Source: Psammoneis japonica (Eukaryota). Taken from it: a stretch of DNA of 64,000 nucleotides. Both the position numbers and the translations under genes were made by a program. Shown here piece by piece: positions 1-64,000 of the stretch. The notes below the pieces were generated by a model. That model was not told the origin of the DNA, made no database searches, and saw only the letters and a list, made by a program, of their open reading frames with translations. Every line of letters begins with the position of its first letter. Within the stretch, counting starts at the first letter, position 1. The DNA is taken from assembly GCA_008632985.1 (NCBI GenBank), contig QPGO01000041.1, positions 62,001-126,000 of the forward strand, given 5' to 3'.

Positions 1-135
1 ATATATGGTATTAATGAATCTATTAGATATAACGGAAGCCGTTGTAACGGGCTTCGCTGAAAGCGACCCTCGTTACCTCGGTCTTTCGCTCACAATTTTG
101 TTATCACTAAAGTCTTTATCTCGTTAGACCTTGCA
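1..135 (+). repeat. 5' LTR of Gypsy copy 1 (partial)
   Basis: Near-identical to 5223-5357; ends CCTTGCA. Confidence 0.95.
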
Positions 136-164
136 CTGTAATTACAGTCGATTCAAAGAACTGG

Positions 165-380
165 ATGGAGACTAGGAACAATACAAACAAATTGACTAAA
201 CGTGAGAAAAGAGAACTGCGCGCAAGAGCAGCAGTTTGGGCCATTGAGCACCAGAAACAAGTGCAACAGCGCAAACGACACGAGCAGAATTTGGCGAGCC
301 GAGTGCATCATTTGGAGTCAAAGGTAGAGTCCCTGGAAAGGACTATTGAACAATTGTATTCCCTTTTTCATGATGAGTGA
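165..380 (+). CDS. 71-aa upstream ORF of Gypsy element, basic region + leucine-zipper-like heptads
   Basis: Conserved in copy 2 (10344-10559). L-x6-L-x6-L-x6-L. Stop lies just past the gag ATG at 370. Confidence 0.55.
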   Translation: METRNNTNKLTKREKRELRARAAVWAIEHQKQVQQRKRHEQNLASRVHHLESKVESLERTIEQLYSLFHDE

Positions 381-1590
381 ATCGTTGAAGGAGCCTTGCA
401 TCAGCTGTGAAGCTAAATTTGAGCATTCTGACTTGGAGGACATGAAATTGACCCAATCGCATGATGACGGTAGCACTCGTACAAAAAAGTGTCCGCGTTT
501 TGATGGCACTCATGGTGTTGAAGCATTGTTATTCGTTGAGGATCGTTTTCGTAAAATTGCTGTGAAACTGGAGCACACTGCTGGCGAGGAGTTGTTCGAA
601 AATTTCGAGGAAGTGCTCACGGATGCGGCAGAGGACAAATGGGCGAATTTGACCAATGCAATTGACGATGCCGATAAAACTGTCGAGCGTTTTGATCAGG
701 AAATCAATCGTTTTTACTTGTCTTATTGTGACAATGAAGCGCGTGATACGATGATTGAATGTTTGCCAACTTTGAAAAAACCATTCAAATCTGAAGTGCA
801 GGCGCGCGCGGATCGCATGGAAACCTTGATTCGGTGCTCCAACAAACTTCCGGGAAATGCTCCTCAAGTCAACGAAGCTCAGAAGAAAAAGATGACATTT
901 GACAGCTTCCCTCGTCCGTGGCGTGAGATGTGTGCTCGAGCAGGACGAGCGACAGCGAATGACACTCTCGCTGAGATCATCAGTTGCGTGAACAATGAGA
1001 AATCTTTTGCTGACAAGAGCAGCAACAAGAAGCAGGACAAGAAGAGGAAAGACAGTGGTGCTTCGTCTCAAGCTTCAAGACGCTCTCGTGGCAACAGTGG
1101 CAGAACGGATCCAGAATCTAGATGCCCGGTGCACGCAAATCACGACCACAAGTGGAAGGACCGCACTTTGAATCCAGAAAGCCAAAACTGTCGGCCGAGG
1201 TCCAACCGTGGCGGTCATGGCGGAGGCCGTGGTGGAGGCCGAGGAAACTGCCAAGGCAGAGGACCCCAAGGTCGAGGCGGTCGTGGCAACTTCCAAGGTC
1301 GAGGACGTGGCAATTGTGGCAATCAAGGAGGATGTGGAGGCCGAGGTTATGGCAACCACAACAACTCCCAGAATTCTCAAGGGAATGGATCCCATTGTCA
1401 AAATCAAAACGGCACCCAAGCCAACGGTGATGCCCAAGGCTGTGGAAATCCGGCTGGAGCAGCTCCTCCTGGTGGCTGGCAAATGGAGTCGCACCATTTT
1501 GATCAAGGAGGGCCTCGTGAGATGCGAGGTGGAAATGGATGCGATCAGAACGGTCGTGCCCATCAAGGCCAACGAAGTTGGCGCAATTGA
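370..1590 (+). CDS. gag: Gag-like protein (capsid-like region, CxxH-x3-H knuckle remnant, RGG/GN-rich tail), TpA-mutated
   Basis: First long ORF after the LTR; CPVHANHDHKW motif; RGG repeats; paralogous to 9134-10354. Confidence 0.8.
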   Translation: MMSESLKEPCISCEAKFEHSDLEDMKLTQSHDDGSTRTKKCPRFDGTHGVEALLFVEDRFRKIAVKLEHTAGEELFENFEEVLTDAAEDKWANLTNAIDDADKTVERFDQEINRFYLSYCDNEARDTMIECLPTLKKPFKSEVQARADRMETLIRCSNKLPGNAPQVNEAQKKKMTFDSFPRPWREMCARAGRATANDTLAEIISCVNNEKSFADKSSNKKQDKKRKDSGASSQASRRSRGNSGRTDPESRCPVHANHDHKWKDRTLNPESQNCRPRSNRGGHGGGRGGGRGNCQGRGPQGRGGRGNFQGRGRGNCGNQGGCGGRGYGNHNNSQNSQGNGSHCQNQNGTQANGDAQGCGNPAGAAPPGGWQMESHHFDQGGPREMRGGNGCDQNGRAHQGQRSWRN

Positions 1591-4500
1591 CAAGGGACGG
1601 AAGCGCCCGAGTCAGAGCGTGTCGCTCAATCTTTTTATGTTTGTGTGATTGTGAAGAAAACACATGTTTTAATGTTGATGACAATGTGGGAGACCTGATG
1701 GAATCTTGTGCTGTGAATGAAGAAAAATTGGGCGGCGTTTTGGAGTGCGCTGCACCAACCCCTAAAACTGCGACTCCCAAACCATTGAGTGTGGTGCCAA
1801 TGACGTTGATGGCGGCGCGCACCATTCAAAATCAAGAGAGCAAGCGAGTGTCACGCGTGCCATTGGATTCAGGAGGTGCTGACACTCTTGTTCATTCTCG
1901 AGTTTTGCCGAAGGGAGCGAATCCGACCATGAACGATGAAGGATGGTTGAGCTTTCAGATGGCAGCCGGACGACATGAATCCTCCCGACACGTTGTCATG
2001 AAGGACTTGACATTGCCAGAATTTGACAAGTCAAAACAAGTCGACAGCATTGCGGCTCAAGTTTTTGACACCCCATGCAAGTGTGACTCAATTTTGGGAC
2101 AAGACTTTTTGTCGAAGGCCGGAATCGTGCTTGATTTTCGATTTGGAATGACAAAGTGGTTGGGAACGTCGATCCCAATGAAGCAATCCAATCATTGGAA
2201 CTCAGTTCAGAATTGGTTGGATGCACTGGAAGACGACGGAGAGGACGAAGACGATGAGGAAGCCTTCGGACAATCTTTTATGATGGACGCCAAATGCGAG
2301 AAAGCATCATCCGCGAAAGTGGCGCAAGCTCAAACTCACTTAACTCAAGAACAACGTGATGAGCTGCAGGCAGTGCTTGAAAAGCATGAAACCCTCTTTG
2401 ATGGAACGCTTGGCAAATGTCCGCATGAGACTGTTCACTTGGAAGTTGATCCCAACGCTGTCCCCTTCCATTCTAAGGCTTGTGAGGTGTCCAAGAGGGA
2501 TGAAGCCGTTTTTAAGAAAGAACTGCAGCATTCATGTGACATTGGCACACTGGAACCAGTGGGACCAACTGAATGGGCAGCCGGAACTTTTGCAACTCCC
2601 AAAAAGGATGGACGAGTTCGATGGGCATCGATTTTCGAGAGTTGAACAAGGTGCTCAAGCGAATGGTCCATCCTCTGCCGATCATTCAAGACGTCATTCA
2701 CCGACGCTCGGGATGCAAGTGCTTGACCAAATTGGACCTCACTGTGTTTTATCATCATGTCGAACTTGACGAAGAATCCAAGGATTTGTGTGCCATCGTT
2801 GCTCCGTTTGGAAAATTTGATGCTGTCGATTGGCCATGGGTTTGAAACCCTCTCCCGACATTGCTCAAGCCATCATTGAAAAAGTGGCAAACGGAATCGA
2901 TGTTGAAACTTACATCGATGATGTTGCTCAATTTGATGATTCGTTTGATGCTCACATGCATCGACTCAATGAGCTGTTGTCCAGACTAGAAGAGAACAAC
3001 CTGAAAATTAACCCATTCAAGTGCAAATGGTGTGTCCAAGAGACGGATTTTTTAGGCCATTGGCTCACGCCTGCAGGAGTCCGACCGTGGAAGAAGAAAG
3101 TGGAAGCGGTGCTACGAATGCAACCACCTAAAACTGTGACGCAATTACGATCGTTCATCGGTGCGGCAACTCATTGTCGCAACATGTGGCCTTGTCGCTC
3201 ACACGTGCTCGCTCCACTCACGAAGTTAACAGGCAAGAGCAAGTTGGAATGGACCCCTGAATGTCAACGAGCCTTTGAAGATGTGAAAACCTTGATGCTG
3301 GACGACACCCTTTGGGTCTACCCGGATCACAACAAACCATTCCATGTTCACACTGACTCTTTGGACTGTCAGATGGGAGCCGCAATTGTGCAAGACGGGA
3401 AACCAGTGGCTTGCTGGTCCCGAAAACTCAGCGCAGCACAACAGAACCACTCTACGATTGAAAAGGAATTGTTGGCGGTGGTGGTGTGTTTCAAAGAATT
3501 TCGGAGCATGTCATTCGGAGCTGACTGCACTGTTTTTACAGATCATAAAAATCTCACCTTTCGCACGCTCAATTCTCAATGAGTTCTTAGGTGGCGACTC
3601 TTCTTGGAAGATTTTGCCCCAACTTTCGAATGCGTTGATGGCAAAGACAACCTCTTGGCGGATTGTTTTTCAAGATTGCCGCGTGTGGACCCTCCTGCGG
3701 AAGGGAAGTGTGCTCCCAACAAGGGCAAACTGATTGATTTTAAGGCGATCGACCCTGCCATGCTGCCGCATGAAGAAGAGCTGGACGACCAAAACCGTGT
3801 GTCTCATTTTTCCTGTCGTCGTGAAGAACCATCTCCATTTCACTCTTCTGTCGTGGACGACCCCGAATTGCATGAATCATTTTTGAACTGTCCTTCTCTC
3901 GAGGAAATGCAAAACCCTGCAACTGTGCAACGAATTCAAGAATGCCAATTCATCGACGTGGAGCTGAACAACATGCGACAACAACATCCAGAACGCTTCG
4001 TGGTGAAACATGTGAATCAGCGTCCTGTAATTTGTCATCGTGCTCGACCGAATGATCCTCCGACTGCGTGGAAAATTTGTGTTCCAACGGCGTTGCTGCG
4101 TGATGTCATGCGATGGCATCATGGAATTTTGGGACATGCAGGAGTGCACCGAATGCATTCCACCATTGGCGCACATTTCCATCATCCTGCCCTTCGTCAA
4201 TCCTGTGAAGGATTTCATTGTGCTGATTGTCAACGTTTGAAAACTTTGGGCCCTGGACATGGGGACCTGCCTGAACGAGAAGCGCCTTTGTTGCCATGGA
4301 CGGAAGTTGCGGTTGATCTCATCGGTCCCTGGAAGATTGAAACTCAAAACCATGAAATCGAATTCAACGCTTTGACTTGCATTGATGCCGTTTCGAATGT
4401 GACTGAACTCATTTGCATCGAAAACAAAACCTCGTCTCACATTGCCCAACAATTTGAAAATTGTTGGTTGTCTCGTTGTCCTCGTCCCAACCGTTGCATC

Positions 4501-5082
4501 CATGACAATGGTGGAGAATTCATTGGAGAGGACTTCCAATTGCCATTGCAACAAGCGGGAGTGGAAGACGCTCTGACCACGTCGCGAAATCCACAAGCCA
4601 ATGCGGCATGCGAGCGCATGCATCAAACTGTTGGAAACATCTTGCGCACTTTGCTTCATGTTTGTCCTCCACAGAATGTTGAGCAGGCCAATCAACTGGT
4701 GGACAATGCATTGGCAACCGCCATGCATGCAATGCGATGTGCAGTTTCTCGTGCTCTCAAGATTTCACCCGGTGCCATGGTTTTTCAACGTGATGTGATT
4801 CTTGACTTGCCGGTCCCAGCCGATCTTGCCACCATTCAAGAACACCGACAAGCGATTGTCAATGCGAATCTCCGTCGAGCCAACGCCAAACGCCAATCCT
4901 GCGATTTTCAAGTTGGTGGACACGTTCTACTCAAGTCTGTCGATCCCACCAAGCTCAAACCACGAGCTCACGGTCCACATCCTGTCGTTCAAGTGCACGC
5001 TGACGGTGCGATTACGGTCCAACATGCACCTCATGTGACAGAACGATTGAACATTCGTCGCGTCGCACCGCATCGTACCTGA
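1591..5082 (+). pseudogene. pol: Pol polyprotein (PR-RT-RNaseH-IN), disrupted
   Basis: LDSGG, TPKKDGRVR, TYIDD, FLGHW, EKELLA, VDLIGPW, HDNGGEF, NPQANA-ERMH motifs. Frameshifts near 1640, 2630 and 2820. CGA->TGA stop at 3580-3582 relative to copy 2. Confidence 0.93.
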
Positions 5083-5195
5083 GGTTGAGGGTTTTCTCCC
5101 CAACATTTGGGTTTCCCTTCTATCCTCATCCATTGGAATTTGAAAATTTTTGAGTCCCGCATGATTCTCGACACTCGAATCATGGAAGGGAAGAG

Positions 5196-5357
5196 TGCAG
5201 TGTCTCGCACCCTATTTTTCTGATATATAGTATTAATGAACCTATTAGATATAACGGAAGCCGTTGTAACGGGCTTCGCTGAAAGCGACCCTCATTACCT
5301 CGGTCTTTCGCTCACAATTTTGTTGTCACCAAAGTCTTTGTCTCGTTGGACCTTGCA
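5196..5357 (+). repeat. 3' LTR of Gypsy copy 1 (162 bp)
   Basis: TGCAGTGT...CCTTGCA, preceded by the PPT. Confidence 0.95.
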
Positions 5358-5362
5358 AAACC

Positions 5363-5524
5363 TGCAAGGTCTGACGAGATGAAGACTTCAGTGATGACAA
5401 AATTGTGAGCGAAAGACCGAGGTAACGAGGGTTGCTTTCAGCGAAGCCCGTTGCAACGGCTTCCGTCACATCCAACAGGTTCATTAATGCTGTGTGTCAG
5501 AAAAACAAGGTGCGAGACACTGCA
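5363..5524 (-). repeat. 3' LTR of Gypsy copy 2 (heavily TpA-mutated)
   Basis: Aligns without gaps to 10589-10750; PPT complement CTCTTCCCTTCC follows at 5525. Confidence 0.95.
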
Positions 5525-5636
5525 CTCTTCCCTTCCATGATTCGAGTGTCGAGAATCATGCGGGACTCAAAAAATTTAAATTCCAATGGATGAGGATAGA
5601 AGGGAAACCCAAATGTTGGGGAGAAAACCCTTGACC

Positions 5637-8600
5637 TCAGGTGTGATGCGGTGCGACGCGGCGTACATTCAATCGTTCTGTCACATGAGGTGTGCGTTGG
5701 ACCGCAAGCGCACCGTTGGCATGCACTTGAACGACAGGACATGGACCGTGAGCTCGTGGCTCGAGCTTGGTTGGGTCGACAGCCTTGAGCAGAACTTGTC
5801 CGCCAACTTGAAAATCGCAGGATTGGCGTTTGGCGTTGGCTCGATGGAGATTCGCATTGACAATCGCTTGTCGGTGTTCTTGAATGGTGGCAAGATCGGC
5901 TAGGACCGGCAAGTCAAGAATCATGTCACGTTGAAAAACCACAGCACCGGGTGAAATCTTGAGAGCACAAGAAACCGCACATCGCATTGCATGCATGGCG
6001 GTTGCCAATGCATTGTCCACTGGTTGATTGGCCTGCTCAACATTCTGTGGAGGATAAACATGAAGCAAAGTGCGCAAGACATTTCCAACAGTTTGATGCA
6101 TGCGCTCGCATGCCGCATTGGCTTGTGGATTTCGCGACGCAGTCGGAGCGTCTTCCACTCCTGCTTGTTGCAATGACAATTGAAAGTCCTCTCCAATGAA
6201 TTCTCCACCATTGTCATGGACACACAGGTCAGGACGAGGATGACGAGACAACCAACAATTTTCAAATTGTTGAGCAATGTGAGACGAGGTTTTGTTGTCA
6301 ATGCGAATGAGTTCAGTCACATTCGAAATGGCGTCAATGCAAGTCAAAGCGTTGAATTCGATTTCATGGTTTTGAGTTTCAATTTTCCAGGGACCGATGA
6401 GGTCAACTGCAACTTCCGTCCATGGCAATGAAGGCGCTTCCCGTTCAGGCAGGTCCCCACATCCAGGGCCTAAAGTTTTCAAACGTTGACAATCAGCACA
6501 ATGAAATCTTTCACAGGATTGACGAAGGGCAGGATGATGGAAATGTGTGCCAACAGTGGAATGCATTCGGTGCACTCCTGCATGTCCCAAAATCCCCTGA
6601 TGCCATCGTATGATGTCATGCAGCAACGCCGTTGGAACACAAATTTTCCACGCAGTTGGAGGATCATTCGGTCGAGCACGACAACAAATTACAGGACGCT
6701 GATTTACACATTCCACAACGAAGCGTTCTGGATGTTGTTGTCGCATGTTGCTCAGCTCCACGTCGACGAATTGGCACTCTTGAATTCGTTGCACAGTTGC
6801 AGGGTTTTGCATTTCCTCGAGAGAAGGACAGTTCAAAAATGATTCACACAATTCGGGGTCGTCCACGACAGAAGAGTAAAATGGAGATGGTTCTTCACGA
6901 CGACAGGAAAAATGAGACACGCGGTTTTGGTCGTCCAGTTCTTCTTCATGCGGCAGCATGGCAGGGTCGATCGCCTTAAAAGTCAATCAGCTTGCCCTTG
7001 TTGGGGAGCACACTTCCCTTCCGCAGGAGGGTCCATGCGCGGCAATCTTGAAAAACAATCCGCCAAGAGATTGTCTTTGCCATCAACGCATTCGAAAGTT
7101 GGGGCAAAATCTTCCAAGAAGAGTCGCCACCTAAGAACTCGTTGAGAATTGAGCGTGCGAAAGGTGAGATTTTTATGATCCGTAAAAACAGTGCAGTCAG
7201 CTCCAAATGACATGCTTCGAAATTCTTTGAAACACATTGCCACCGCCAATGATTCTTTTTCAATCGTAGAGCAGTTCTGTTGTGCTGCGCTGAGTTTCTG
7301 GGACCAGCAAGCCACTGGTTTCCCATCTTGCATGATTGCGGCTCCCATCTGACAGTCCGAAGAGTCAGTGCAAATGTGGAATGGCTTGTCATGATTCGGG
7401 TGGACCCAAAGGGTGTCGTCCAGCATCAAGGTTTTCACATCTTCAAAGGCTCGTTGACATTCAGGGGTCCATTCCAACTTGCTCTTGCCTGTCAACTTCG
7501 TGAGTGGAGCAAGCACGTGTGAGCGACGAGGCCACATGTTGCGACAATGAGTCACCGCACCGACAAACGATCGCAGTTGCGTCATGGTTTTAGGTGGTTG
7601 CATTCGCAGCACCGCTTCCACTTTCTTCTTCCACGGTCGGACTCCTGCAGGCGTGAGCCAATGGCCCAAAAAATCCGTCTCTTGGACACACCATTCGCAC
7701 TTGAGTGGGTTAATTTTCAGATTGTTCTCTTCTAGTCTGGATGACAGCTCATCGAGTCGACGCATGTGAGTTTCAAACGAATCATCAAATTGAGCAATGT
7801 CATCGATGTAAGTTTCAACATCGATTCCTTTTGCCACTTTTTCAATGATGGCTTGAGCAATGTCGGGAGAGGTTTTCAAACCCATGGCCAATCGACAACA
7901 TCGAAATTTTCCAAACGGAGTGACAACAGCACACAAATCCTTGGATTCTTCGTCAAGTTCGACATGATGATAAAACACAGTGAGGTCCAACTTGGTCAAG
8001 CACTTGCATCCTGAGCGTCGGTGAATGACGTCTTGAATGATCGGCAGAGGACAGACCTTTCGTTTGAGCACCTTGTTCAACTCTCGAAAATCGGATGCCC
8101 ATCGAACTCGTCCATCCTTTTTGGGAGTTACAAAAGTTCCGGCTGCCCATTCAGTTGGTCCCACTGGTTCCAGTGCGCCAACATTACACAGATGTTGCAG
8201 TTCTTTCTTAAAAACGGCTTCATCCCTCTTGGATGCTTCGCAAGCCTTAGAATGGAAGGGAACAGCATTGGGGTCAACTTCCAAGTGAACAGTCTCATGC
8301 GGATGTTTGCCAAGCATTCCATCAAAGAGGGTTTCATGCTTTTCAAGCACAGCCTGCAGCTCATCACGTTGTTCTTGAGTTAAGTGAGTTTGAGCTTGCG
8401 CCACTTTCGCGGATGATGCTTTCTCGTATTTGGCGTCCATCATAAAAGATTGTCCGAAGGCTTCCTCATCGTCTTTGTCCTCTCCGTCGTCTTCCAGTGC
8501 ATCCAACCAATTCTGAACTGAGTTCCAATGATTGGATTGCTTCATTGGGATCGACGTTTCCAACCACTTTGTTGTTCCAAATCGAAAATCAAGCACGATT

Positions 8601-10354: not shown

Positions 10355-10559
10355 GAAAAAGGGAATACAATTGTTCAATAGTCCTCTCCAGGGACTCTAC
10401 CTTTGACTCCAAATGATGCACTCGGCTCACCAAATTCTGTTCGTGTCGTTTACGTTGTTGCACTTGTTTCTGGTGCTCAACAGCCCAAACTGCTGCTCTT
10501 GCGCGTAGTTCTCTTTTCTCACGTTTAGTCAATTTGTTTGTATTGTTCCTAGTCTCCAT
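10344..10559 (-). CDS. 71-aa upstream ORF of copy 2
   Basis: Two amino-acid differences from 165-380. Confidence 0.55.
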   Translation of the reverse strand: METRNNTNKLTKREKRELRARAAVWAVEHQKQVQQRKRHEQNLVSRVHHLESKVESLERTIEQLYSLFHDE

Positions 10560-10588
10560 CCAGTTCTTTGAATCGACTGTAATTACAG

Positions 10589-41860: not shown

Positions 41861-41991
41861 TGCTCACACTTTTTTTGTCGAGAACAGCACGTGCAACACA
41901 CTTCCAGCAGTTACGAAATCTGTTCGTGTTCAAACCAATCAGCATCATTTGAGGATGAGATTCTTGTGGGGCCCTTTTCATTCCCCCCCCT

Positions 41992-54599: not shown

Positions 54600-56600
54600 G
54601 TATGCACCTTTTTCCTGTAAGTAAAACGAAATGTTCGATTTTGTTCAATCGTTTAGTGAAAGAACAGTAGGAGCGGCGCTATTTCGCATGAAACACTTGC
54701 ACGACCTGAAACCGTCTTCAAACACAAGAGTGCAGCGATTCGGGTCCCGCAACGTGGGAGCACCCCGTTTACAGTCAACCACCAGCCATTCGTCAGCAAC
54801 GACATCGTGGTACTTCCCTTCGATACATCGCGGATGCTCTCCAATGCCATCTCCGTCGCGTAGCAATTCGATCGCCCATTTTTTGCAATTCTTGATGTAA
54901 AAGTAATGCCCCCGTAACCACTTTCCCGTCAACTTCCGCTTCAGTGCCGAGCACTGGGATTATGGTTTAATCGATCGGCAGCAACGTTGCAATCGCCTCG
55001 TGAAACAATTGCTGGTACACGGTCTCCTTGGGGCTCTTCTTTTCACCATCCTTTACCTCGCATGAATTGCGAAGACGACGCGCGGACAAGAACTTGGTTG
55101 CCTGAACGGCAAGCTCGTCAATGTCTTCTGGTTCCCTTGTTGCTGTCCGCGGGAACATGTTGCTGTAGTAGAACCGTTCTGCCGCTGCTAGAGATGTGAA
55201 CTGGCACCTTTCGGTCAAAATTCCAGCCTTGATCAGTCTGTTGGGGGGGGGGGCGCTGTTGGCACTGCTGGCCTTCTTTAGCGTGACGTCTGACTGATCC
55301 TTTCTCAGAGATGACAAAAGAAGTGAAAAGACAACATCATGGGACTGGTGGTCCATTGGGGAGCAGGGGAAGCATCTTTCCAGATTGTCAATGAACTCTT
55401 GATTTTCAACAACCTCGGACATTGCAGCAGCAGCTTCTTCAGCCAGGGCTCGCTTCACTCGAGGTGGGTCTTGCAGTCAAAAACGGATCACACTGGCAAG
55501 AAGACAGTGAGATCTGAAAAATGCTTTTGTGCAGTTCATTGCAGATGCCATCATTGGAAATGATGATGGCTGTTTGTTTGTGGCCAGAGAAGTTTTGATT
55601 GGTGCAGCTCTTGGCAGCAACAAATTCTCTTGGAACTTGAAAAAAAAACAACTGCTGCGTGTTTTGGCATTGTGCACAGCAATTTTGGGTGCTTGTCAAA
55701 GCACGGAAGCACAAAAGTGCAAGCAGCTGGCAGTGTGATGTTGAGCAGTGTGCAAATTGCCTTGTGTTGATTGCACCCTTCTCAAGCAAAAGCTTCTCGT
55801 TTTGTTGAGTGACAAGAAAGACAAGCAGCGCTTGAGTCTTTGATGATGTTCATGCATGCAGAGCCATGGCAGCTGTTGAAAAAGATGACATTTGAGCTGG
55901 CAAAGACTTGCCCAGCCAAAGCAGTTGGAAAATTGAGCTGCTTGCCAATGGGTGGAATGTCTGGGTCCATGTGCTGATGGCAGACACTTGGGGGGTGACT
56001 CGCCATGCACATCTGCCCTGTGGCAGCAAGCCAAGCTTTCAAAGATGTTGCTCATGCTGCAAACAGAGGCACGTGTGGCAGCTCCAACAAAATGTCAAAG
56101 ACATTGTGGGGCAGCAACAAAGCAAAGAGCTTGGCCAGAAAAAAAACATTTGGCTGTGAGAAAAAGGCCCGCCAGGGTGCTTGTGTTAAAAAAAGCCAGT
56201 GGGGCCACAGCATCATCCAGCAACTGCTTTTGTGAGGCTTTTTTCCACACGCACCATTGCTGGACTAACTTTTCACCCATGTGGTGACTGGGAGGAGATG
56301 CCTGCCTGACTCCAAGCAACAAAGCTCAAGCTGCTTGGGGGGGGGGCAAAGGGTCAGCAAAGGAAAAATGTGACTGGGTTTGTTGCAGCAGCAGCTCTTG
56401 TGAAGCCAGGGATGCTGCCACTGGCTGTGGTTGGCTTTGCAGGCACTCTTGCTTCTTGCTGTTCCATGTTGGGTGCCAAAAATTCAGTGTCCACATCTGG
56501 GACACCAGTGATCCAGGTGTCGCACTGGCCATCAAGATTTCTTGAAACAAAACCCGACATTCTCTCCCTTTGGTCCAAGATTGTGCTGATTTGTCAAGTC
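54600..56600 (-). pseudogene. Crinkler (CRN)-like effector gene remnant with C-terminal PD-(D/E)XK REase-like domain
   Basis: ETVYQQLFHEAI, FYI...WAIELL-DG--IGEH...GKY...VVD resemble the CRN C-terminal nuclease-like module; frameshifted; upstream half decayed. Confidence 0.45.
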
Positions 56601-57974
56601 AGCTTTTCTGAAACATTCAACAACAAACATCTGTGTTCCTCAACCCAGCCATTTGCCCCCCCCATCCAACAAGCCTTGTGTGTGTGTTCAACTCCATTTT
56701 AATTTCTGGATTGTGTGTCAATCAACTTTCTGGATCAAAATCGCCGCCCATGTCCATCAATCTAGATTCCAACTGTCTTCTCAATTTTCTCTCCCTTCCC
56801 ATTCCATCCTTCCTTCCCGTCCATCCACGATGCCTTCCATGTTGATCGCACGTTGTTTCTCTGTGTTTCTGCCCTCACTGTGTCCCCAAGTGATTGTTGC
56901 TGCACCCGCTGTTTCCTTTCGATTCTCTTCTCAACTCCTTCGTCTGTGTGCATCGGCCATGTTGTCTGATGGTCTTGTTTGTCCATGGTGCAAACGAACT
57001 GGTTTCTTTTCCAAACGTGGTCTCAGCAGGCACATCGCAACCAACTGCCTCCGTTCCACCATTTCCACCAAGTCTTTCAGTTGTCCTCGTTGCGGACAAC
57101 ATGGACTTGACTCCAAAAACAACGTGCAGCATCACCCATCTCATCACTGCACCGCAGCATCTGGTCTCCATCCCCCGTTGACACAGTTGCGCCGCACAAC
57201 CCAATCATCTTCTTCATCTGGTGGAACATCTCTTTCCTCTCATCCTCTGGATTCCGCCTCCATTGGCTCCCTTGGATCCAACACCAACAAACCCAAATGC
57301 CCCCATTGCCATGTCCCCTTTTCCAACATCACCCTTCATCTGCAGAAGCACTTGCCCTGCCATGAAAAGGAGGAAATGTCCCTTTGCCTGCATGCCGCAT
57401 CTTCTGCTGCCACCAATGCACTTCCCCCTCCAGACGATGAATCGCTGGACAACCATGATGAATCACTGGACGACCATGATGATCCTGCTGGATTTGGTTT
57501 CTCCAACGATGAGCCCCATCCTCCCCTCCCCAAAGTCCTTTGGAATCCAGCTCCATCTCCTCCCACACCAACGGACAATTCTTCTCCAGCTTGTCCTCCC
57601 TCTGCCAGAAATGGGCTGTGCCCACCCTCCGTCAGATGCTCTGGTCGATTGCGTTCAGCCGCCAACGTTGCTGCCACCAGTGCAGCGCCTCCCAAAACAC
57701 CCACCGATTTGTTTTCATTGGAGCCGACCGTCGCGATGGTGGTTGTGGGCCCCCCTCAATTTCCCGTCCGACAGAAGAGCCTGTGTCCTCCCTCGATCCA
57801 CGCAACCCTCTTGGCCCGCCGCATGACATCGCACCCCATGAGGATTTCGATGCACCTCCAGTCTGCTCACCCAGCATTGCACCCATGGTGCATTTGCCAC
57901 ATTTGTGTCGTCGGTCAGGTGTTGCAATTGACTTTGTTGACAAAGCAATGAGAATTTTGCATGAAGAGCATGCA

Positions 57975-58369
57975 GACGCGTTCCAGCCCTAGGTGGGAGC
58001 TCGCAGTGCTGACGTGTGACAACAATAATTTTTATCATCCGTCGTATGTTTCGTACGTAGATTTCTACGTGTGACATTTAAAAAAATTGTCCAGACTCGC
58101 TGTTTTGCGAAGCCCCAGACGTTTTATATGACAAATTTATAGAAACAATAATGCGCCAGTTACATTCTTCAATGTCTGAAGAATGTAACTGGCTAAGTAA
58201 AAAATGATGTACTTCAATCATGTGCGAGTTTGTGCGTTCGCAAAATTGCCTCATTTTCTGTTGGCGATCATTGACATTTTAATTGCCGTGTGATTTTACT
58301 GCGGAGCTCGCACGTAGAAGTCTACGGGCCCAATGTCACACGGATTCCCACCTACGTCTGGAACGCGTC
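57975..58369 (+). mobile_element. MITE family A copy (395 bp), TSD TGCA, least mutated
   Basis: Same TIRs; TGCA on both sides. Confidence 0.92.
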
Positions 58370-58869
58370 TGCAGAAAAAAGACTGGATTTGTCAAAGCCA
58401 CCCGTCACAACCGCCGTGGCGATGAAGCAACTCCTGGGGCCATTTCCCAATGTTCCTCTCCCCCGCACTGCTGCTGCGATGCTAGAGTGTGACAATCCAA
58501 CACAGCAACAGAAGGATGGACCCAAATGTCGTCGCTCCCCACCTTTCCCAGTTTGCAGTTTCACCGAGACCTTGCAGGATCTCTTCACCGAGCCAGTGTT
58601 CCGTGATCTTTCCAAGTTGCAGGCCAGTCCAAATGATGTCTGGTCACCTTGTGTGCCACCCCCCACTGACGGCGATTTGGATCCCAGCGCTGGCCAGGCT
58701 GACGGTTTTGACAAGGCTGCGGAGGACAAGAGATGGAGTTGCCCAAACGTCATCTGTTTGCTGCTCAACATGAGTTGATCAGCGACTTGGACAAGATTCG
58801 GGAGAATGTGGTTAGCTGCGGGAGATGCACTTTGTGTCATGATGATGTGCAGGCTGGCATCAAGTGTGT

Positions 58870-59045
58870 GAACAAAACAGTGATGCCAAAGGCACATGTC
58901 AACAGAAACATGTGTTGATGAAAAACTGATGCCAAATTCTTCTGTTGACAAATGTGCACAATGACAGAAAAGTGATGCCAAATTGCTTTGTCAACACACA
59001 GTTGTGACAACAAAAAAGTGATGCCAAATTGCTCTGTCAACAGAT
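58870..59045 (+). repeat. Four degenerate repeats with core AAAAGTGATGCCAAATTGCT-TGTCAACA
   Basis: Cores near 58875, 58921, 58968 and 59015. Confidence 0.65.
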
Positions 59046-59300
59046 GGGGGCATTGCTGAAAAAGTGACACCTGTCATTTGCAATTGTTCATCATGCACAT
59101 TCTTCCAAAAGAGTTTGTTTGTGGTGCAGAATGAACGGTGGATGGCAGCTGTTCCTTTGTGTCTGCCGCGGCGGCAATGTGAAAATGTCTCACAACAGCA
59201 CCAACAGGACAGTGTGCAACAAAATTGTTTTCCACTCTTTTGAGATGGCTGGGATGACCCATTTGATGAGATCATGCAGCAAACAGGATCGACGAAGATC

Positions 59301-59443
59301 ACATCACATGGGACTGTTTAAGAAAAAAACGTCTGTGGTGCACCCGACAGATGGACTGCCGTTGACAACACATCACATGGGACCATTTATGAAAAAAACG
59401 TCTGTGGTGCACACAACAGATGGACCGCCATTGGCAACACATG
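59301..59443 (+). repeat. Two-copy tandem repeat of about 69 bp
   Basis: acatcacatgggac..ttta.gaaaaaaacgtctgtggtgcac...acagatggac occurs twice. Confidence 0.85.
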
Positions 59444-59829
59444 TCCAGTGAGAAAGCCGTTTTCATTGCACAGCAATGGATGTGGACTTTTGCTAGATTG
59501 GGTCTGTTCCACCTAAAAAAAAGACTGGGTGCCATTTGATTTGGTGGAGCAAGCATTTTCAGAGAATGGCGCGGAAGTGTTCTGCGAACGGATGCTGGAA
59601 ATTTGCCCGTTGACCAACAACGTTGTGTCAGAAACATGGCAAGTTGCTGACACAACCTGGCGAAATGAAATCTCATGTCGTCAAGAGTGAGACGGCCAGG
59701 TCCAAAGAAAGAGTGCACCAGGAAGGAAAAAAAGGCTGCTTGCAAAAATTCAAAACACCACTGCCCCTGCTCAACCAGATGACAACACTGGCAAACAAGG
59801 CACCAAGCAGCAAGCGAGAGAAGGAAGGA

Positions 59830-60330
59830 CACTGCTTTGTTGGTGAGTTCGCCATTGGCAAAAAGGACAAGGTGGAAGGTGTTGGGTTGGCAGAAAAAAT
59901 GTTGGAGTTAATTCCTGGCTTTCCCCCAGCACAGGTGATTTGTGCAGAAAGACATCCCGGCACACAGCAGCAAACGCTCCTGCTTCAAGTTCAAGATCAA
60001 ACTTCTTGTCAAAGGGGGAAATTCATCGCGATCACTTGGAAACAAAATTGTCACCTGGTGACAAAATTTTCACCATGTTTCTGTTCCTCGATGACACAAC
60101 GGAGCACAATGGTGCAGTTGAGACATGGCCGGATGGTTGTGAGGTGACATTGAATGAGAAGGAATGTGAAAGACACTTGGTTGGGTTGGGTTTGGAAAAA
60201 CAAAATTGCTGGTTGGAGAAGCAGGCACTGCATTTGTTTTTGATGCAAGAATGTTGCACCGAGCTTTGCCCAACAAAACGAATTCGGATCGAAGGAACAT
60301 GGTGTGTCTGGTCCACAATTTTGACATGGC
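59830..60330 (+). pseudogene. PhyH-like 2OG-Fe(II) dioxygenase remnant within the decayed element
   Basis: GEIHRD...FTMFLFLDD-T--NGA---WP then, after a frameshift, GEAGTAFVFDARMLHRALPN-T---R. Confidence 0.6.
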
Positions 60331-60993
60331 AAGCATGTGAACACAGTGAGCATGTGAACAAGTGGTTGTTGGAATGCAAAACCAGTGAAGCAGCAAGTTG
60401 GCAGAGGCAAAAAGTGGGTTTGTGCAAAGGGCCAATTGAAAATGCATTGCTTGCACAGAAGAAAGTCACATCACAAACAAAGGGGAACTGCAAAGTCACC
60501 CACTTTTGGCAGGCTTGAATTTTCATTTGATGTCAGACCCCAGGTCGTTCCTGGTGGAATGCCTTGGCTCCACGGCATCGTCTCTTTTCTTGGTGCACTT
60601 GTGAAGCAGGTGCCCATCAACACCACCTCCCCATGATGGATCGTCTGGACAGGCAGGAACAAAGAATGCTCCATGCCTCCATTTGTGGGCATGCACACAA
60701 AACATCACGTCCAGCAAAATGACAATGGCACCTTCAGGACACTCGTTGGACAGCATCTCCTTGAGTTGGTTCTGTGTCGCATTGTTGTCAAAAAGCATTC
60801 GCCCATTGCAGTTGTTGAAGAAAATCTTTAAGTTGTTCAGACGGTGCAACCGACGCACAGCATCATCTTCAGAGAGGAAGTCCTGTTTGATCAGGGTGGG
60901 ACAGCGACTGGTGTGGTCATGCCAGATGGCATTGCACCACTGAGAGCCCAAATCATGACGGGGGCTGTGGAACTCGATGCTGCAGGCATTGCA

Positions 60994-61389
60994 GACGCGT
61001 TCCAGACGCAGGTGGGAATCCATGTGACATTGGGCCCGTAGACTTCTACGTGCGAGCTCCGCAGTAAAATCACACGGCAATTAAAATGTCAATGATCGCC
61101 AACAGAAAATGAGGCAATTTTGCGAATGCACAAACTCGCACATGATTGAAGTGCATCATTTTTTACTCAGCCAGTTACATTCTTCAGACATTGAAGAATG
61201 TAACTGGCGCATTGTTGTTTCTATAAATTTGTCACATGAAACGTCTGGGGCTTCGCAAAACAGCGAGTCTGGGCAATTTTTTTTAAATGTCACACGTAGA
61301 AATCTGCGTGCGAAATGTGCGACGGATGACAAAAATCATTGTTGTCACACGTCAGTGCTGCGAGCTCCCACCTGGGGCTGGAACGCGTC
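60994..61389 (-). mobile_element. MITE family A copy (396 bp), inverted, TSD TGCA
   Basis: Reverse complement of 57975-58369; TGCA on both sides. Confidence 0.92.
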
Positions 61390-64000
61390 TGCAGGCAGGA
61401 ACAAGCAAATGACAGGCAATCGCAAAACCGCCAACACCACCACCAACGTCGAGGAAATTAAAGGGGCTTCGAATTTGGGCCGCAAGGAGAGCGGGGTTAC
61501 AAATGACCTCGGCGAAGAAGGCAAAGCTTGTCGCACCACCGTGTGATTCCACACCACCACCAGCAAAACGACCAATTTGATCATCAATTGGCGGCATGTG
61601 ATTGCAACAGAGGGAGTGCATGTTCCTGTGATGGGAGCGACTCACAACAACCACATCTCAGTGAAAATGAAACCCTTCAGTGGCCATTGAAAGTGGATTG
61701 GATGATTTGGGTGACAGAGAGAGCAGTTGGAGAGACACGGCATTGGGGAAGCAGAGAGAATGACCTGTTGAGACAGGGACAAATTAATGTGAGACAATGA
61801 GCGATGTGGATTTGCACAAACAAATGGGAGGTTTGACACGACTTGACAAACCAAACGAAACTGATGTTGCATCAGGAAGCAGGCGCAATGCATGCATCAA
61901 TGTGAGAAGATGCAACACATTGTTTGACATTGATTTGAGTGACACTGCAATCTTCTTCATTGGTGCGCCAGATTGCCTGGCAAAGGTGCACAATTCAAAA
62001 CAGTGGAACGTTGACAGAAATTCAAACATGGGGTTGGGAATGAGCACTCAAAAATGATGCAAAGACCTGTTTGAATCAAGAGAGGACATGCGAGCAACAA
62101 CAAAACCGAGAAAATCACATGCAAAGTGCGTTCATTTCGCAACTTGCCTTTCACAAAGCAACAGGAAAGGACGGAAGTTCCAAATGAGAGGAAGCCATTG
62201 GGAAGGTGAAAAAGATGGAAGATGCAGTTCTCACAGGAGCAACGGAGGGAGGAAGTGCAACTTCCAGCAGCAAGTGAGGTTGAGAAAGGACATGACAAAG
62301 AGTTGCTGATGAGCCAACAGAATTGGATTTGTCTGTGTGGTGTCACATGAAGTCACCATGAGTCCTGCGGTGGTGGCCTTGTTGCACTCACAAAGAAACA
62401 AACATGGGGAATTAAACAGATTCCAGCACGCAGGTGGGGATTCAAGTTTGGCGGTGACTCCCACAGAGGGGTGTCTTGCGTTGGATCATGCACCAGTGGT
62501 GGGCAAGAAATTGACAGCATCGATGCTCACAAAGGCAGTCAATGAGAGTGTTTGGCCACATCGCAAGTTCGCAATCTTTGATCAAGAACTCGCCGCAGGA
62601 GGAGATTGCATGAAATTGGTTCTGCAGGAGTTGAGGAGCATGGCGTCTTCACCGGAGGCATTCTGGGAAGAATGCAAAGAGGTGTTCAGGACCAAACTCA
62701 ACCAAAAGAGGAACAATGTGCAGGACAACACATTGGGAGGAGAATGACAGGCAAGCAGATGTGTGCGTGCCGCTGATTGTGTTGGAGGCGATTGTCTGAC
62801 GGGATGAGTGTTGCTTCCTTTGCTTCCATCTGTGCAGTTGCTGCTTTAGAGGGATCGCTGGTGGGTTGCAAAGATTTGACAAAGGGAAGAAATGACAAGG
62901 ACACATGCCCGTGGTTCTTGGAAACTGTGGTGCCGACGTTGGTGGGACAAGCGCAGTTTGGCAGAAGCACAACCAACATGCTTCAGGAGTGGCTTTCCAT
63001 TTTGTCGGAGGCATTTGCTCTGCCAGCGGCCGCACTTGAGCTGCTGCGACAAGGTGAAGGACATGGCAGAGAAATTGGAAAAGGAAGAAAATGTTGCAAG
63101 GAGAAGAAAGCTGACTGTGAAAGACGCTGCTCCTGCAAAGTGGACAGCACAGGCAGCAGGGGAATCGGCAAAGAGGAGCCAAGGATGGAGCAAGGAGGGG
63201 ATCAAGAAGCACAATGATCCATGTCAGTGGGTGGTGAAAGACAGAGAGAACAACCAGGGATTTGGTGCATGGTTCAAGGAGAGAAGGCGAGAGAAGACAA
63301 GCTTGTCCAAGGGGGAAAACAAGAAGTGCAAAAGAGAGGAAAAGAGAAAGGAGAGAGAGGAAGGATGGGCGGCGCCGATGGGAGAGGACCTGCCATTGCA
63401 GGCGGTGGCTGCAGGCAATGGAGCGGCAGCAAATGCTGCAATGGCCGCCAACCAAACTGGTGTGCAAAAGCAATTTGAAACAAACAACAAAATCTGGAAA
63501 AGCGAGAACACAAAAAAAAATGTTCTGCAGTGCGGCTTGGATGCAAGAACGTGCGGCAATTGGGAACTTTGATTTGAAAATGACATGGCAAAGAGACAAA
63601 ATGCAGGACAAGTTGGCAGACAAGGAGGGTGGATTGCAAGTGGCAACATTTGTGCTGAAAGAACGAGAAACCGCAAATGTCAATTGGGGCGCAGGTGTCA
63701 GCATTGTGTGAAAAGAATGACCGTGCTTAAAAGTGGGAAGCGATTTGGGTTTTGGAAGCTTGTGAACTTGCACAGTTCTCACATCACATTCAAGAGAGAC
63801 TTGGCTCACAAGCCAACAACAATCTGGCATCAAAGTCAACAAATGCCCAGATTGTGGCAGACGGTCAGACCCAGATTGTTGGCGTCCCAGATGAAGGGGT
63901 TTTCACAAAGACAGCAGTGCAAAGCAGGAGTTTCCAGTGCTGCCCCCCAGGTGCACAGCGCACCACTTGCCTGGCACTCTCTCATCCCAAACTGCGCCAA

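Follow-up and report, generated by a model that had tools for sequence, protein, structure and literature searches.

About half of a 64,000-nt stretch of nuclear DNA from a diatom (hereafter the window) consists of silent, mostly transposon DNA in which nearly all TA dinucleotides have been rewritten to TG or CA. So far, this signature had been reported only in one 2026 preprint on the unrelated alga Bigelowiella natans (10.64898/2026.01.13.699255), so that the diatom case extends a very recently described kind of process, here on transposons; judged by the available part of that preprint, the first-pass annotation's statement that no system of this kind had been described is out of date. To explain the pattern, we lean towards localised, in-place TA>TG/CA hypermutation of silent DNA by an adenine deaminase recruited through chromatin.

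Domains depleted of TpA

Across the whole window, the observed/expected ratio (O/E) was 0.35 for TA, 1.41 for TG, 1.41 for CA and 0.75 for CG. In 1-kb windows, TA O/E fell to 0.01–0.1 within the domains named below versus 0.4–0.85 outside. A two-state HMM on TA positions called nine sharp-edged depleted segments, which agreed within ~100–300 bp with the TpA-poor, TG/CA-rich domains outlined in the first-pass annotation. Together, these segments comprise 31,202 bp with 138 TA (4.4 TA/kb), while ~1,320 would be expected at the rate of the normal segments (32,798 bp, 1,387 TA, 42.3 TA/kb); the normal TpA content ascribed earlier to the intervening DNA was thus borne out, and TG and CA were raised in the depleted segments to match the TA deficit. 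The longest TA-free gaps in the window measured 1,227 and 1,215 bp, the longest one within normal segments 228 bp. The features are as follows; "depleted" marks the HMM segments.

1..135, + strand: 5' LTR of Ty3/gypsy element A, incomplete as the window begins inside it; rich in TA and essentially unmutated (LTR alignment)
136..747, + strand: PBS/leader and gag start of element A; spared, TpA normal (HMM)
748..5212, + strand: depleted body of element A with gag, PR-RT-RNaseH and IN; TA O/E 0.10, CG 0.90
5196..5357, + strand: 3' LTR of element A; 5' half (5213-5296) an unmutated island, 3' half mutated
5297..9975, - strand: depleted body of Ty3/gypsy element B; TA O/E 0.12; Pfam matches
5358..5362, no strand: target-site duplication AAACC of element B, second copy at 10751-10755 (read from the sequence)
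5363..5524, - strand: 3' LTR of element B; 2 of 15 TA left after heavy mutation
9976..10588, - strand: gag start, leader and PBS of element B; spared, TpA normal (HMM, alignment)
10589..10750, - strand: 5' LTR of element B; unmutated, 15 TA
18374..23554, no strand: depleted, TpA- and CpG-free domain; TA O/E 0.04, CG 0.13, TG 1.83, CA 1.93
24849..25859, + strand: 3' part of an expressed host gene, the unmutated parent; 40 TA, 41 CG
25258..25352, + strand: 95-nt GT..AG intron of the host gene; splicing is seen from the loose end of a contig (X2) at 25257, which continues at 25353
25813..28528, no strand: depleted domain containing the gene duplicate; TA O/E 0.05, CG 0.24
26031..27024, + strand: hypermutated tandem partial duplicate of 24849-25859, intron included; 73% identity over 1,042 columns
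41309..43510, no strand: depleted domain holding the MITE-like copies M1 (41227-41623, old) and M2 (41992-42387)
45574..49344, no strand: depleted domain with sharp edges; TA O/E 0.06; 1,215-bp TA-free gap from 45573
55190..64000, no strand: depleted domain reaching the window end, broken by two young MITE insertions into three segments (55190-57989, 58354-61038, 61298-64000); TA O/E 0.03-0.05
57975..58370, + strand: MITE-like M3, 396 bp, ~24-bp TIRs; almost unmutated, 23 TA
60993..61389, - strand: MITE-like M4; partly mutated, 11 TA

Element A exhibited Pfam matches to RVT_1, RT_RNaseH and rve, and Tyr accounted for 0–0.8% in its ORFs. Positions 1-747 were normal according to the HMM (TA O/E 0.50), with 14 TA in 1..135 versus 11 in the corresponding part of the 3' LTR of A, and sites carrying TA in both copies of the A/B alignment were dense up to position ~783. 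Element B was inserted immediately adjoining the 3' end of element A. In the domain at 18374..23554, a Pfam search with 23 ORFs gave no match and no internal repeats were found, even by transition-blind comparison; in the read contigs, ~2 kb on its left side and ~2.3 kb on its right are unique at k=31, as both parts lie in long unitigs continuous with the flanking genes. The domain at 45574..49344 holds a probable PIF/Harbinger remnant, given a weak match to the PIF/Harbinger-type transposase family DDE_Tnp_4 (PF13359; 46337-46867, - strand; E 3.2e-5, 24.0 bits, just below the 24.8 cut-off), and a search for homologues of the long ORFs in 55190..64000 revealed none that were convincing. TG and CA O/E were nearly equal in the non-gypsy domains. 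CG O/E fell to 0.13–0.65 in the older depleted domains, where a slower CpG>TpG/CpA decay is superimposed on the loss of TA.

Polarity, timing and site preference

Since a TG-versus-CA difference between two copies is equally expected from CpG decay, pairwise spectra alone prove nothing, whereas polarised comparisons do, and these identified TA as the ancestral state. The LTRs of element B differ at 15 of 162 positions, 13 of which are TA in the 5' LTR and TG (five) or CA (eight) in the 3' LTR, the others being one CG>CA change and one transversion. Both strands were thus affected about equally, even inside a single LTR. Element B carries Cys at 11, His at four and Tyr at three of 18 columns in which 60 homologues have a conserved Tyr, while Arg was kept in 18 of 20 and Trp in 9 of 9 cases. 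Moreover, 78 related gypsy loci from metagenomes showed TpA O/E values of 0.45–1.08 and a longest TA-free gap of 291 bp, so the gypsy elements were not TpA-poor originally. Instead of consensus elements that were themselves TpA-free, a case the first-pass annotation had raised, these loci and the conserved Tyr columns indicate TpA-bearing ancestors.

The host gene and its tandem duplicate gave the same picture. Of 40 parental TA, 23 became CA, 11 became TG and two were kept, so that 34 of the 38 changed sites are TG or CA; among 41 parental CG, 19 became CA, 13 became TG (32/41 to TG/CA) and two were kept. Every other dinucleotide was retained at 47–81%. Per A, the A>G frequency reached 0.43 at TA versus 0.09–0.14 at AA, CA and GA (AA 0.10), demonstrating that rates are unequal across dinucleotide contexts. 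Of the 29 columns that vary in the MITE trio, 28 fall on YR dinucleotides. The earlier observation that alignable copies differ mainly by TA>TG/CA therefore applies to the LTRs, the MITEs, the A/B pair and the gene with its duplicate. Likewise, the claim of action on chromosomal DNA on both strands stood, with an LTR retroelement, short TIR elements, the probable PIF/Harbinger remnant and an intron-containing duplicate all affected.

Support from reads, which the first-pass annotation had called for, was obtained only through contigs of a public read set, possibly the assembly's own. The contigs carried the substitutions and showed the identical TpA-free sequence, with allelic TG/CA pairs. Two of them (X1), of 5,018 nt (15385-20398) and 4,377 nt (from 21225), both extend into flanking genes and differ from the window at 12 positions in 5,018 nt and at six in 4,136 aligned nt, respectively. 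Adjacent TG>CA double differences between contigs and window occurred at four places in 18374-23554, within the k=31-unique parts. Together with the divergent LTRs of a single element, these double changes indicate that mutation took place in situ after insertion.

In the young gypsy pair, TA O/E had dropped to 0.10–0.12 while CG O/E remained at 0.88–0.90, and only 22 of 338 A/B mismatches were transversions. Each copy shows a background divergence of 0.85% and a CpG loss of ~13%, with convertible TA almost gone. Assuming at least 95% conversion, we estimate that TA was converted at ~350-fold the local background or more, a rate at which convertible sites would be nearly exhausted. Over 4,394 aligned nt, A and B are discordant (TG versus CA) at 64 sites, a number that would fit a normal TA density only if most conversions had occurred independently in each copy.

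Conversion proceeds site by site: seven of seven runs tests matched the permutation means, revealing no tracts, and the outcome at a CG was not linked to that at the nearest TA (17/32, 11/29, 20/38). Its rate is highest at 5'-TAY-3' and lowest at TTAA. Surviving TA were mostly YTAR and above all TTAA, which made up 39 of 138 survivors versus 54 of 1,396 TA in normal DNA (chi-square P 5e-31). In the polarised sets, the mutated fraction was 25/29 for RTAY, 53/94 for mixed sites and 19/45 for YTAR, and in 35 of 53 mixed sites it was the A before Y that had mutated (P 0.027). Estimates of the TAY preference disagree, amounting to ~2:1 by strand choice and to between 4:1 and >15:1 by survivors.

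Chemistry and targeting

The favoured mechanism would start with an enzyme that deaminates adenine in DNA to hypoxanthine, at the A of 5'-TA-3' on either strand. Hypoxanthine would be read as G in the next replication, yielding TG or CA. As a leading candidate for the enzyme, to judge from the sequence pattern, we propose an adenine deaminase, perhaps TadA/ADAT2-like or another deaminase-fold protein; TadA/ADAT enzymes naturally edit an A preceded by U/T. Recruitment would depend on the chromatin state of silenced or foreign DNA rather than on homology between repeats, as suggested by which sequences escape. A TA>TG/CA change cannot generate a stop codon, and elements would be inactivated by missense changes (Tyr>Cys/His and others). 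Several features count against this model. The outer ~750 bp are spared in both gypsy elements, as is an 84-bp island in the 3' LTR of A. ADAR prefers a 3' G and the natural site of TadA is UAC, so that the preference for a 3' pyrimidine would be unlike the former and only partly like the latter, which may speak against a deaminase. The discrepant estimates of the TAY preference and the derived states shared by M2 and M4 (see below) weigh on the same side.

Since TA is self-complementary, A-directed and T-directed (R-T*-A) chemistry give identical outcomes. An enzyme modifying T in R-T-A to a 5hmU-, 5fU- or base-J-like form that mispairs with G, leading to T>C, would fit every sequence result equally well, the favoured context corresponding to R-T*-A on the opposite strand. 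In some protists, silent DNA is marked by hypermodified thymine, and 5-formyluracil promotes T>C mutations. However, near-complete conversion would demand a very efficiently mispairing lesion, and the sole published discussion, in the part of the preprint available, favours A-deamination, albeit without proof (10.64898/2026.01.13.699255). We thus regard thymine chemistry as possible but unlikely.

Quite unlikely is also the recognition of repeats by homology as in fungal RIP, combined with A:T>G:C chemistry. Those targets that could be identified are transposons and a duplicate, and the gypsy elements appear to belong to a multi-copy family: ~1,700 read-contig pieces with 85–100% likeness fell on a 20-kb stretch, and the summed word depth of gypsy bins, which is not a copy number, was 25–60x that of neighbouring genes. 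Furthermore, RID-related DNMT4 genes of unknown function occur in many diatoms, according to the portion of the survey at hand (PMC9998398). Nevertheless, only one copy of the tandem duplicate pair is mutated; the LTRs of element B, identical at insertion, now hold 15 versus 2 TA; M3, from a multi-copy MITE, is nearly intact, keeping its 23 TA despite ~95% identity to M2 and M4 and depleted surroundings; and much of the 18.4–23.6 kb domain is k=31-unique without internal repeats found. The B. natans target is single-copy as well, as far as the preprint's accessible text goes (10.64898/2026.01.13.699255). Homology-based targeting is therefore not supported: the domain-restricted TA>TG/CA process of the first-pass annotation stood, while its repeat-targeted, RIP-like part did not.

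The other candidate named there, Pol-eta-like error-prone patch repair that miscopies T at WA while repairing deaminated 5mC in methylated transposons, appears improbable. A>G at WA, strongest at TA, is the signature of Pol-eta, and TA loss accompanies CpG loss in several domains. Yet the AA context was not raised (see above), transversions were rare in the A/B pair and the changed TA of the duplicate were nearly all TG or CA, in the young gypsy pair TA loss had progressed much further than CpG loss, and CG and TA outcomes were not strand-linked.

Very improbable, in our view, is editing before integration, in which retroelement RNA or single-stranded cDNA would be edited in the style of ADAR or APOBEC3 and mutated copies would then insert. 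Both gypsy copies spare the 5' LTR, leader and early gag but are mutated beyond, a pattern similar to the editing gradients of APOBEC3-edited retroviruses. M2 and M4 also share ~10 identical derived states, as would be expected had a mutated copy transposed; some mutations may thus predate insertion, or strand choice may be set partly by context. On the other hand, both strands are hit about equally even in one 3' LTR, the intron-bearing duplicate, the TIR elements, the probable DNA-transposon remnant and the largely k=31-unique domain are affected as well, and allelic TG/CA pairs exist at one locus.

Finally, some platforms systematically miscall modified bases (A>G and C>T), and the assembly may have been built from the very read set used here. 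Still, an artefact in which modified bases of silent DNA were misread in sequencing or assembly, with the TA really present, is hardly credible, as contigs built from reads alone carry the TpA-free sequence and show fixed TG/CA pairs relative to the window, copies of one element show different, stable outcomes, the Tyr>Cys/His signature recurs in 4 of 270 unrelated database proteins, and de novo mutations of the same type were seen in Illumina data of B. natans, according to the accessible part of the preprint (10.64898/2026.01.13.699255).

Comparison with known systems

The process resembles fungal RIP in that in-place transition hypermutation ruins mobile DNA and shifts dinucleotide frequencies in sharply bounded domains. 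RIP, however, makes C>T changes mostly at CpA, creates TpA and stops, requires duplicated sequence and affects all copies, whereas in the window A>G occurs at TpA, TpA is removed, no stops arise, and one duplicate copy and one of two LTRs escape. With AID/APOBEC editing it would share deaminase-type hypermutation as a defence, along with a short sequence context; AID/APOBEC enzymes act on cytosine in single-stranded cDNA with one-strand bias and strand-coordinated clusters, in contrast to the two-stranded, run-free pattern found here. ADAR of animals, ADAT2/3 (TAD2/TAD3, acting on fungal mRNAs) and TadA-derived adenine base editors likewise cause A to be read as G and favour a preceding U/T. 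Natural ADAR and ADAT2/3 act on RNA, though, while the change observed here is fixed in the chromosomal DNA of non-retro sequences, and the 3' base is G for ADAR versus C/T in the window. Deamination of 5-methylcytosine also yields TG/CA, and the resulting CpG decay is present in the window, but it cannot remove TpA and is much slower here (~13% of CpG lost per gypsy copy).

The closest counterpart is B. natans, as described in the available part of the preprint (10.64898/2026.01.13.699255). In mutation-accumulation lines of this alga, de novo TpA>TpG/CpA changes arose in silent integrated viral DNA, and 230 of 231 SNMs in two regions were A>G or T>C. These regions represent integrated giant-virus and virophage DNA; TpA-poor, CpA+TpG-rich clusters were enriched in RT/DDE domains, and ADAT2 was proposed as the enzyme. 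Both cases share A>G/T>C changes only at TpA, on either strand, confined to particular foreign or silent regions, at rates far above background (~1000-fold in B. natans versus our estimate of ~350-fold or more). They differ in host (a rhizarian versus a diatom) and in targets, which are viral DNA in B. natans and transposons, a gene duplicate and unidentified DNA in the window. The B. natans mutations are de novo, in regions that still hold TpA (Rho 0.45), whereas the window displays a near-saturated end state (O/E 0.03–0.12). While the accessible text gives no 3'-base rule for B. natans, the window shows TAY >> TAA.

The TpA-depleted domains and their occupants

The window was recognised as eukaryotic nuclear DNA with few and short introns. 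Pfam searches identified host genes for a PP2C phosphatase, a thiolase, a serine acetyltransferase, a glutamate-receptor-like channel, a carotenoid oxygenase and others. All named matches of the carotenoid oxygenase were diatoms (best identity ≤62%), and the closest atlas clusters of the channel protein were mostly Bacillariophyta. Over the whole window, the observed/expected ratio (O/E) of TpA was 0.35, and both TG and CA stood at 1.41. When calculated in 1-kb windows, TpA O/E ranged from 0.01 to 0.1 within the domains delimited by the first-pass annotation and from 0.4 to 0.85 between them. Segmentation by an HMM on TA positions yielded nine depleted segments, which together comprised 31,202 bp and 138 TA (4.4/kb; about 1,320 expected), versus 32,798 bp and 1,387 TA (42.3/kb) in the normal segments. 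The initial description of TpA-poor, TG/CA-rich domains with normal genes between them was thus confirmed. The longest TA-free gap measured 1,227 bp in depleted DNA compared to 228 bp in normal segments. The gain of TG and CA matched the TA lost, with the lost CG added wherever CpG had disappeared as well. The intervening host genes were spared (TA O/E 0.54–0.66). Hypermutation was restricted to certain regions, as delimited by the HMM, and gypsy, MITE and weak Harbinger identities occurred among the depleted domains; three of the six domains were without identifiable origin. The following features were assigned:

1–10750: two full Ty3/gypsy LTR elements, tail to tail (A, plus strand, about 1–5357; B, minus strand, 5363–10750), based on Pfam reverse transcriptase, RNase H and integrase
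26031–27024: tandem partial duplicate of the 3′ part of an expressed gene, inside the depleted segment 25813–28528; parent segment at 24849–25859
41227–41623, 41992–42387, 57975–58370 and 60993–61389: four copies (M1–M4, M1 being old) of a 396-bp MITE-like element with terminal inverted repeats (TIRs), in or beside depleted DNA
45574–49344: candidate PIF/Harbinger remnant, based on a sub-threshold DDE_Tnp_4 match in one ORF

This match suggests a PIF/Harbinger remnant. Together with a weak DUF7385 hit, it was all that Pfam returned for the 107 ORFs of at least 90 aa in the five domains other than the gypsy pair. Pfam, atlas and homologue searches revealed no identity for 18374–23554 and most of 55190–64000; 56590–57948 gave low-score leads only in the atlas search, and 62652–63902 gave no match in the homologue search. 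A search for TIRs or LTRs at the domain edges in purine/pyrimidine coding found matches of 14–18 nt only, a length expected by chance, and no further repeats of at least 80 nt were found in the window. Inverted repeats of about 105 bp (51054–51160 and 51776–51877, 83% identity, about 620 bp apart) were located in normal-TpA DNA, near two N at 50869–50870.

Depleted DNA contained 213 TAA plus TAG but 1,466 TGA, and ORFs were long on both strands. The long ORFs in 18374–23554, 55190–64000 and the other depleted segments are thus explained by the near absence of TAA and TAG, and since such ORFs gave no homologues, their length is no evidence of a gene here. For annotation, this means that TpA-free DNA gives rise to long spurious ORFs, as only TGA stops remain. 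Conversion of TA to TG or CA cannot turn a sense codon into a stop.

Contigs of the public read set X2, listed as "DNA?", contained spliced joints and behaved like RNA or transcriptome. One of them, at 12845–16219, skipped stretches of 82–115 nt marking introns of the genes there, namely 13598–13714 (with 17 other letters between), 14836–14920, 15185–15268 and 15645–15750, the latter two with CT..AC ends. X2 contigs were without cover at 5361–10696 and 18.7–23.4 kb, where lack of cover does not equal silence. A third read set, X3, yielded nothing.

Sequence context and strand of the substitutions

Because an ancestral CG explains TG-versus-CA differences between copies no less than an ancestral TA does, we relied on polarised comparisons, i.e., LTRs, parent gene and duplicate, tyrosine columns and MITEs. 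Substitutions were almost exclusively A>G/T>C, with C>T decay at CpG on top. The gypsy LTRs are 162 bp long and end in TG..CA. A 5-bp duplication (AAACC at 5358–5362 and 10751–10755) brackets element B, showing that B inserted directly beside the 3′ end of A. The two LTRs of B, identical at integration, have since accumulated 15 differences over 162 positions (five TA>TG, eight TA>CA, one CG>CA and one transversion), which places these mutations after integration; 15 TA are present in the 5′ LTR and two in the 3′ LTR. Repeat finders and LTR dating will mis-age such copies, the 9% divergence between the LTRs of B being almost wholly due to hypermutation. Between A and B, 316 of 338 mismatches were transitions, and identity in purine/pyrimidine coding reached 99.47%.

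The duplicate includes the 95-nt GT..AG intron of the parent gene, as delineated by a spliced contig end, and therefore originated at the DNA level. Of the 40 TA in the parent segment, 23 had become CA and 11 TG, while two were kept, so that 34 of 38 changed sites were TG/CA. The 41 CG had turned into CA (19) or TG (13), with two kept; the remaining dinucleotides were kept at 47–81%. The mutated A was preferentially preceded by T, both in the duplicate (A>G per A: TA 0.43 versus AA 0.10, CA 0.14 and GA 0.09) and in 13 of the 15 LTR differences. A diverged paralogue of the gene with the duplicated 3′ part (23922–25860) lies at about 36.7–38.2 kb (36704–37341), on the minus strand, and matches it in two blocks at 68–75% identity. 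In the young MITE trio, 28 of 29 variable columns were located at YR (pyrimidine–purine) dinucleotides, and the number of TA kept was 23 in M3, 9 in M2 and 11 in M4. M2 and M4, which differ in place and orientation, share about ten identical derived TG/CA states, which would be explained either by renewed transposition of a partly mutated copy or by a choice of strand dictated by the sequence context.

The same signature was found at the protein level. At 18 columns with Tyr in at least 70% of 60 homologues, element B encoded Cys (11), His (4) or Tyr (3), and other conserved residues were kept (Arg 18/20, Trp 9/9, Asp 22/23). The share of Tyr is 0–1% in transposon ORFs versus 2.2–3.6% in host genes, and annotation has to allow for transposon proteins that lose Tyr. 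As a control only, and not as evidence on spread, we inspected 78 related gypsy loci from metagenomes: none showed TpA depletion (O/E 0.45–1.08; longest TA-free gap 291 bp). Judged by these relatives, the elements of the window were not TpA-poor originally.

TG and CA outcomes were nearly equal in the non-gypsy domains and followed each other in random order: the number of runs corresponded to the permutation mean in seven of seven tests (e.g., 33 vs. 31.6, 65 vs. 59.5, 70 vs. 66.2), indicating that sites were mutated one by one. The outcome at CpG was not linked to that at the nearest TA (17/32, 11/29, 20/38). These runs and linkage tests lent no support to two ideas prompted by M2, namely tracts coordinated by strand and a dual A/C deaminase working on a single strand. 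An apparent sense-strand bias in gypsy (TG 1.55/CA 1.28) was dropped as well, because related unmutated elements already have more TG than CA and ascertained sites gave CA 46/TG 42 in A and TG 51/CA 42 in B.

The 138 surviving TA were mostly of the YTAR type (survivor motif, chi-square P = 5e-31). TTAA made up 39 of the 138, compared to 54 of 1,396 in normal DNA, and no ATAT-type site survived. Nine of ten site classes were closely fitted by a model in which the rates of the two strands add up and TAT ≥ TAC > TAG >> TAA. In the polarised sets, 25 of 29 RTAY, 53 of 94 mixed and 19 of 45 YTAR sites were mutated. The A before a pyrimidine was hit in 35 of the 53 mixed sites (P = 0.027), and 3′ C had prevailed in 25 of the 34 cases of a smaller first analysis (P = 0.009). 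Survivor and polarised estimates agreed in direction and differed in size. GpC O/E was 1.2–1.4 in domains that had also lost CpG versus about 1.0 in normal DNA, as expected if GTA>GCA and TAC>TGC were favoured conversions.

Independence, rate and targeting

In the depleted part shared by A and B (4,394 aligned nt), 64 TG/CA sites were discordant, while TA persisted in a single copy at 20 sites and in both copies at a further 20. CpG was polymorphic at 61 and shared at 203 sites; other transitions amounted to 56 and transversions to 19. With an about even choice of strand, 64 discordant sites correspond to about 128 fully converted ones, which together with the other 40 yield about 39 TA/kb. 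This equals the normal density, which argues that most conversions arose independently in each copy. Background divergence per gypsy copy was 0.85%, CpG loss per copy about 13%, and convertible TA were nearly exhausted. The rate at convertible TA would thus be about 350-fold background or more, an estimate rather than a measured rate, and well above that of CpG decay. About 1,700 read-contig pieces matched a 20-kb stretch, and the gypsy bins had a summed word depth 25–60x that of neighbouring genes, suggesting a multi-copy family, although word depth is not copy number.

In both gypsy copies, the 5′ LTR, leader and early gag (about 750 bp; 1–747 and 9976–10750) were spared. A and B have different flanks and opposite orientation, and the sparing looks either intrinsic to the element or due to its position at the block edge. 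Furthermore, an 84-bp island in the 3′ LTR of A (5213–5296) retained 11 intact, highly mutable TA amid depleted DNA; the same stretch was fully converted in the 3′ LTR of B. The island suggests patchy protection at about nucleosome scale.

An artefact is disfavoured: contigs of X1, a read set seen as contigs only and possibly from the assembly's own sample, carry the TpA-free sequence of 18.4–23.6 kb. Two of them (5,018 nt and 4,136 nt aligned) showed 12 and 6 differences from the window, and both extend into flanking genes, which makes the corresponding parts of the domain unique at k=31. The 12 listed difference events in 18.4–23.6 kb include four adjacent TG>CA pairs, two TA versus TG/CA and one CG versus TG; they resemble alleles of a single locus that were resolved independently. 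In ordinary genic DNA, three of 14 listed contig–window differences (16087, 16343, 13980) were TA versus TG/CA, which, in this small sample, may be a sign of weak activity beyond the depleted domains.

The first-pass annotation had proposed repeat-induced mutation of chromosomal DNA. While the TA>TG/CA signature and its action on chromosomal DNA held, targeting by repetition did not. The duplicate was hit and the parent segment left untouched (2 versus 40 TA), one of two originally identical LTRs of B was untouched, and M3 was nearly intact, though multi-copy and within a depleted domain. These comparisons, together with a domain at 18.4–23.6 kb that appears largely unique at k=31, do not support RIP-like homology recognition. 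The common traits of the targets, a mobile or non-genic nature and a position between expressed genes, lead us to infer that a chromatin-state signal may guide the process. Loss of CpG in the older domains (O/E 0.13–0.65) fits long-term cytosine methylation. In Phaeodactylum, transposons are methylated by DNMT5a, and many diatoms carry the RID-related DNMT4 (PMC9998398).

Candidate mechanism and comparison with known systems

Adenine deamination at T-A-Y in silent chromatin is the best mechanism we can offer, and we consider it moderately probable. Its main rival is thymine-directed chemistry, in which the T of the step would be the base attacked. Pol-eta-type repair, as in AID/Pol-eta mutagenesis at WA, is disfavoured: AA would be hot as well and A>T and A>C substantial, whereas AA reached 0.10 against 0.43 at TA, and transitions outnumbered transversions 316:22. 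Editing before integration is likewise disfavoured, since the intron-bearing DNA duplicate and TIR elements were hit and the LTRs of B diverged after integration. ADAR editing fixed by retrotransposition would affect retro-copies only, while here the locus largely unique at k=31 was affected, too. ADARs moreover prefer G as the 3′ neighbour, in contrast to the 3′ C/T observed here, with TAG and TAA being slow. GC-biased gene conversion was rejected because the changes depend on context, are limited to domains and occur together with C>T at CpG.

Among 270 gypsy polymerase homologues examined, four were nearly Tyr-free (0–0.8%), with Cys or His at conserved Tyr columns and 48–53% identity to the gypsy element of the window (P0173 among 120; P0253, P0292 and P0294 among 150). 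This signature points to the same footprint elsewhere in public data.

Hypermutation defences based on cytosine are represented by RIP and APOBEC. The first-pass annotation knew of no adenine-directed, TpA-specific counterpart; this view is superseded by one recent preprint on a single rhizarian alga, Bigelowiella natans (10.64898/2026.01.13.699255). Full-text searches found no description of the signature in diatoms, which form another major lineage and one of high ecological importance. The window adds near-saturation on transposons and a gene duplicate. Beyond what the available preprint text describes, it also provides the T-A-Y rule, refractory TTAA, independence between sites, symmetry of the strands, the pace of the process compared with CpG decay, and results that speak against targeting by homology. 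The search for the enzyme, which could be a natural DNA adenine deaminase and as such of practical use, is thereby narrowed.

We tentatively propose that diatoms and chlorarachniophytes might have in common an enzyme guided by chromatin, which would serve as a genome defence by deaminating adenine at 5′-TAY-3′ in double-stranded chromosomal DNA, a possibility we hold with less confidence than the deamination itself. If true, two distant SAR lineages would possess a natural adenine base editor that strips transposons, duplicates and viral inserts of Tyr codons and of other information containing TA, and never creates stops. The Tyr-free gypsy polymerases in public metagenome data (4/270) would then be footprints in further organisms.

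Fungal RIP converts C:G to T:A and thereby creates TpA, whereas here A:T is converted to G:C and TpA is removed. RIP also mutates every copy of a duplication, unlike the process described here, which the parent segment, the 5′ LTR of B and M3 escaped. Further hallmarks of RIP are its premeiotic timing and its dependence on RID/DIM-2. APOBEC-like deamination of single strands leaves strand-coordinated clusters, in contrast to runs at the permutation mean in all seven tests. The closest parallel is B. natans. Two integrated viral regions received 231 of the 302 single-nucleotide mutations that arose in its mutation-accumulation lines; 230 of these 231 were A>G/T>C, and all GC-biased ones occurred at TpA (10.64898/2026.01.13.699255). 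The rate in these regions was about 6e-7, approximately 1000-fold background, in some lines only; the genome contains 124 TpA-poor, CpA- and TpG-rich clusters, and RT and DDE domains are overrepresented among its coding sequences with low TpA (10.64898/2026.01.13.699255). ADAT2 was proposed as the enzyme, as a hypothesis, and the preprint text available gives no trinucleotide context (10.64898/2026.01.13.699255). As far as that text allows comparison, both systems share A>G/T>C changes at TpA only, confinement to foreign or mobile regions and a rate, estimated here, orders above background, and the one-by-one hits in the window resemble the scattered de novo mutations in B. natans. The diatom represents a second lineage, in which transposons are the main prey and the process has run to completion.
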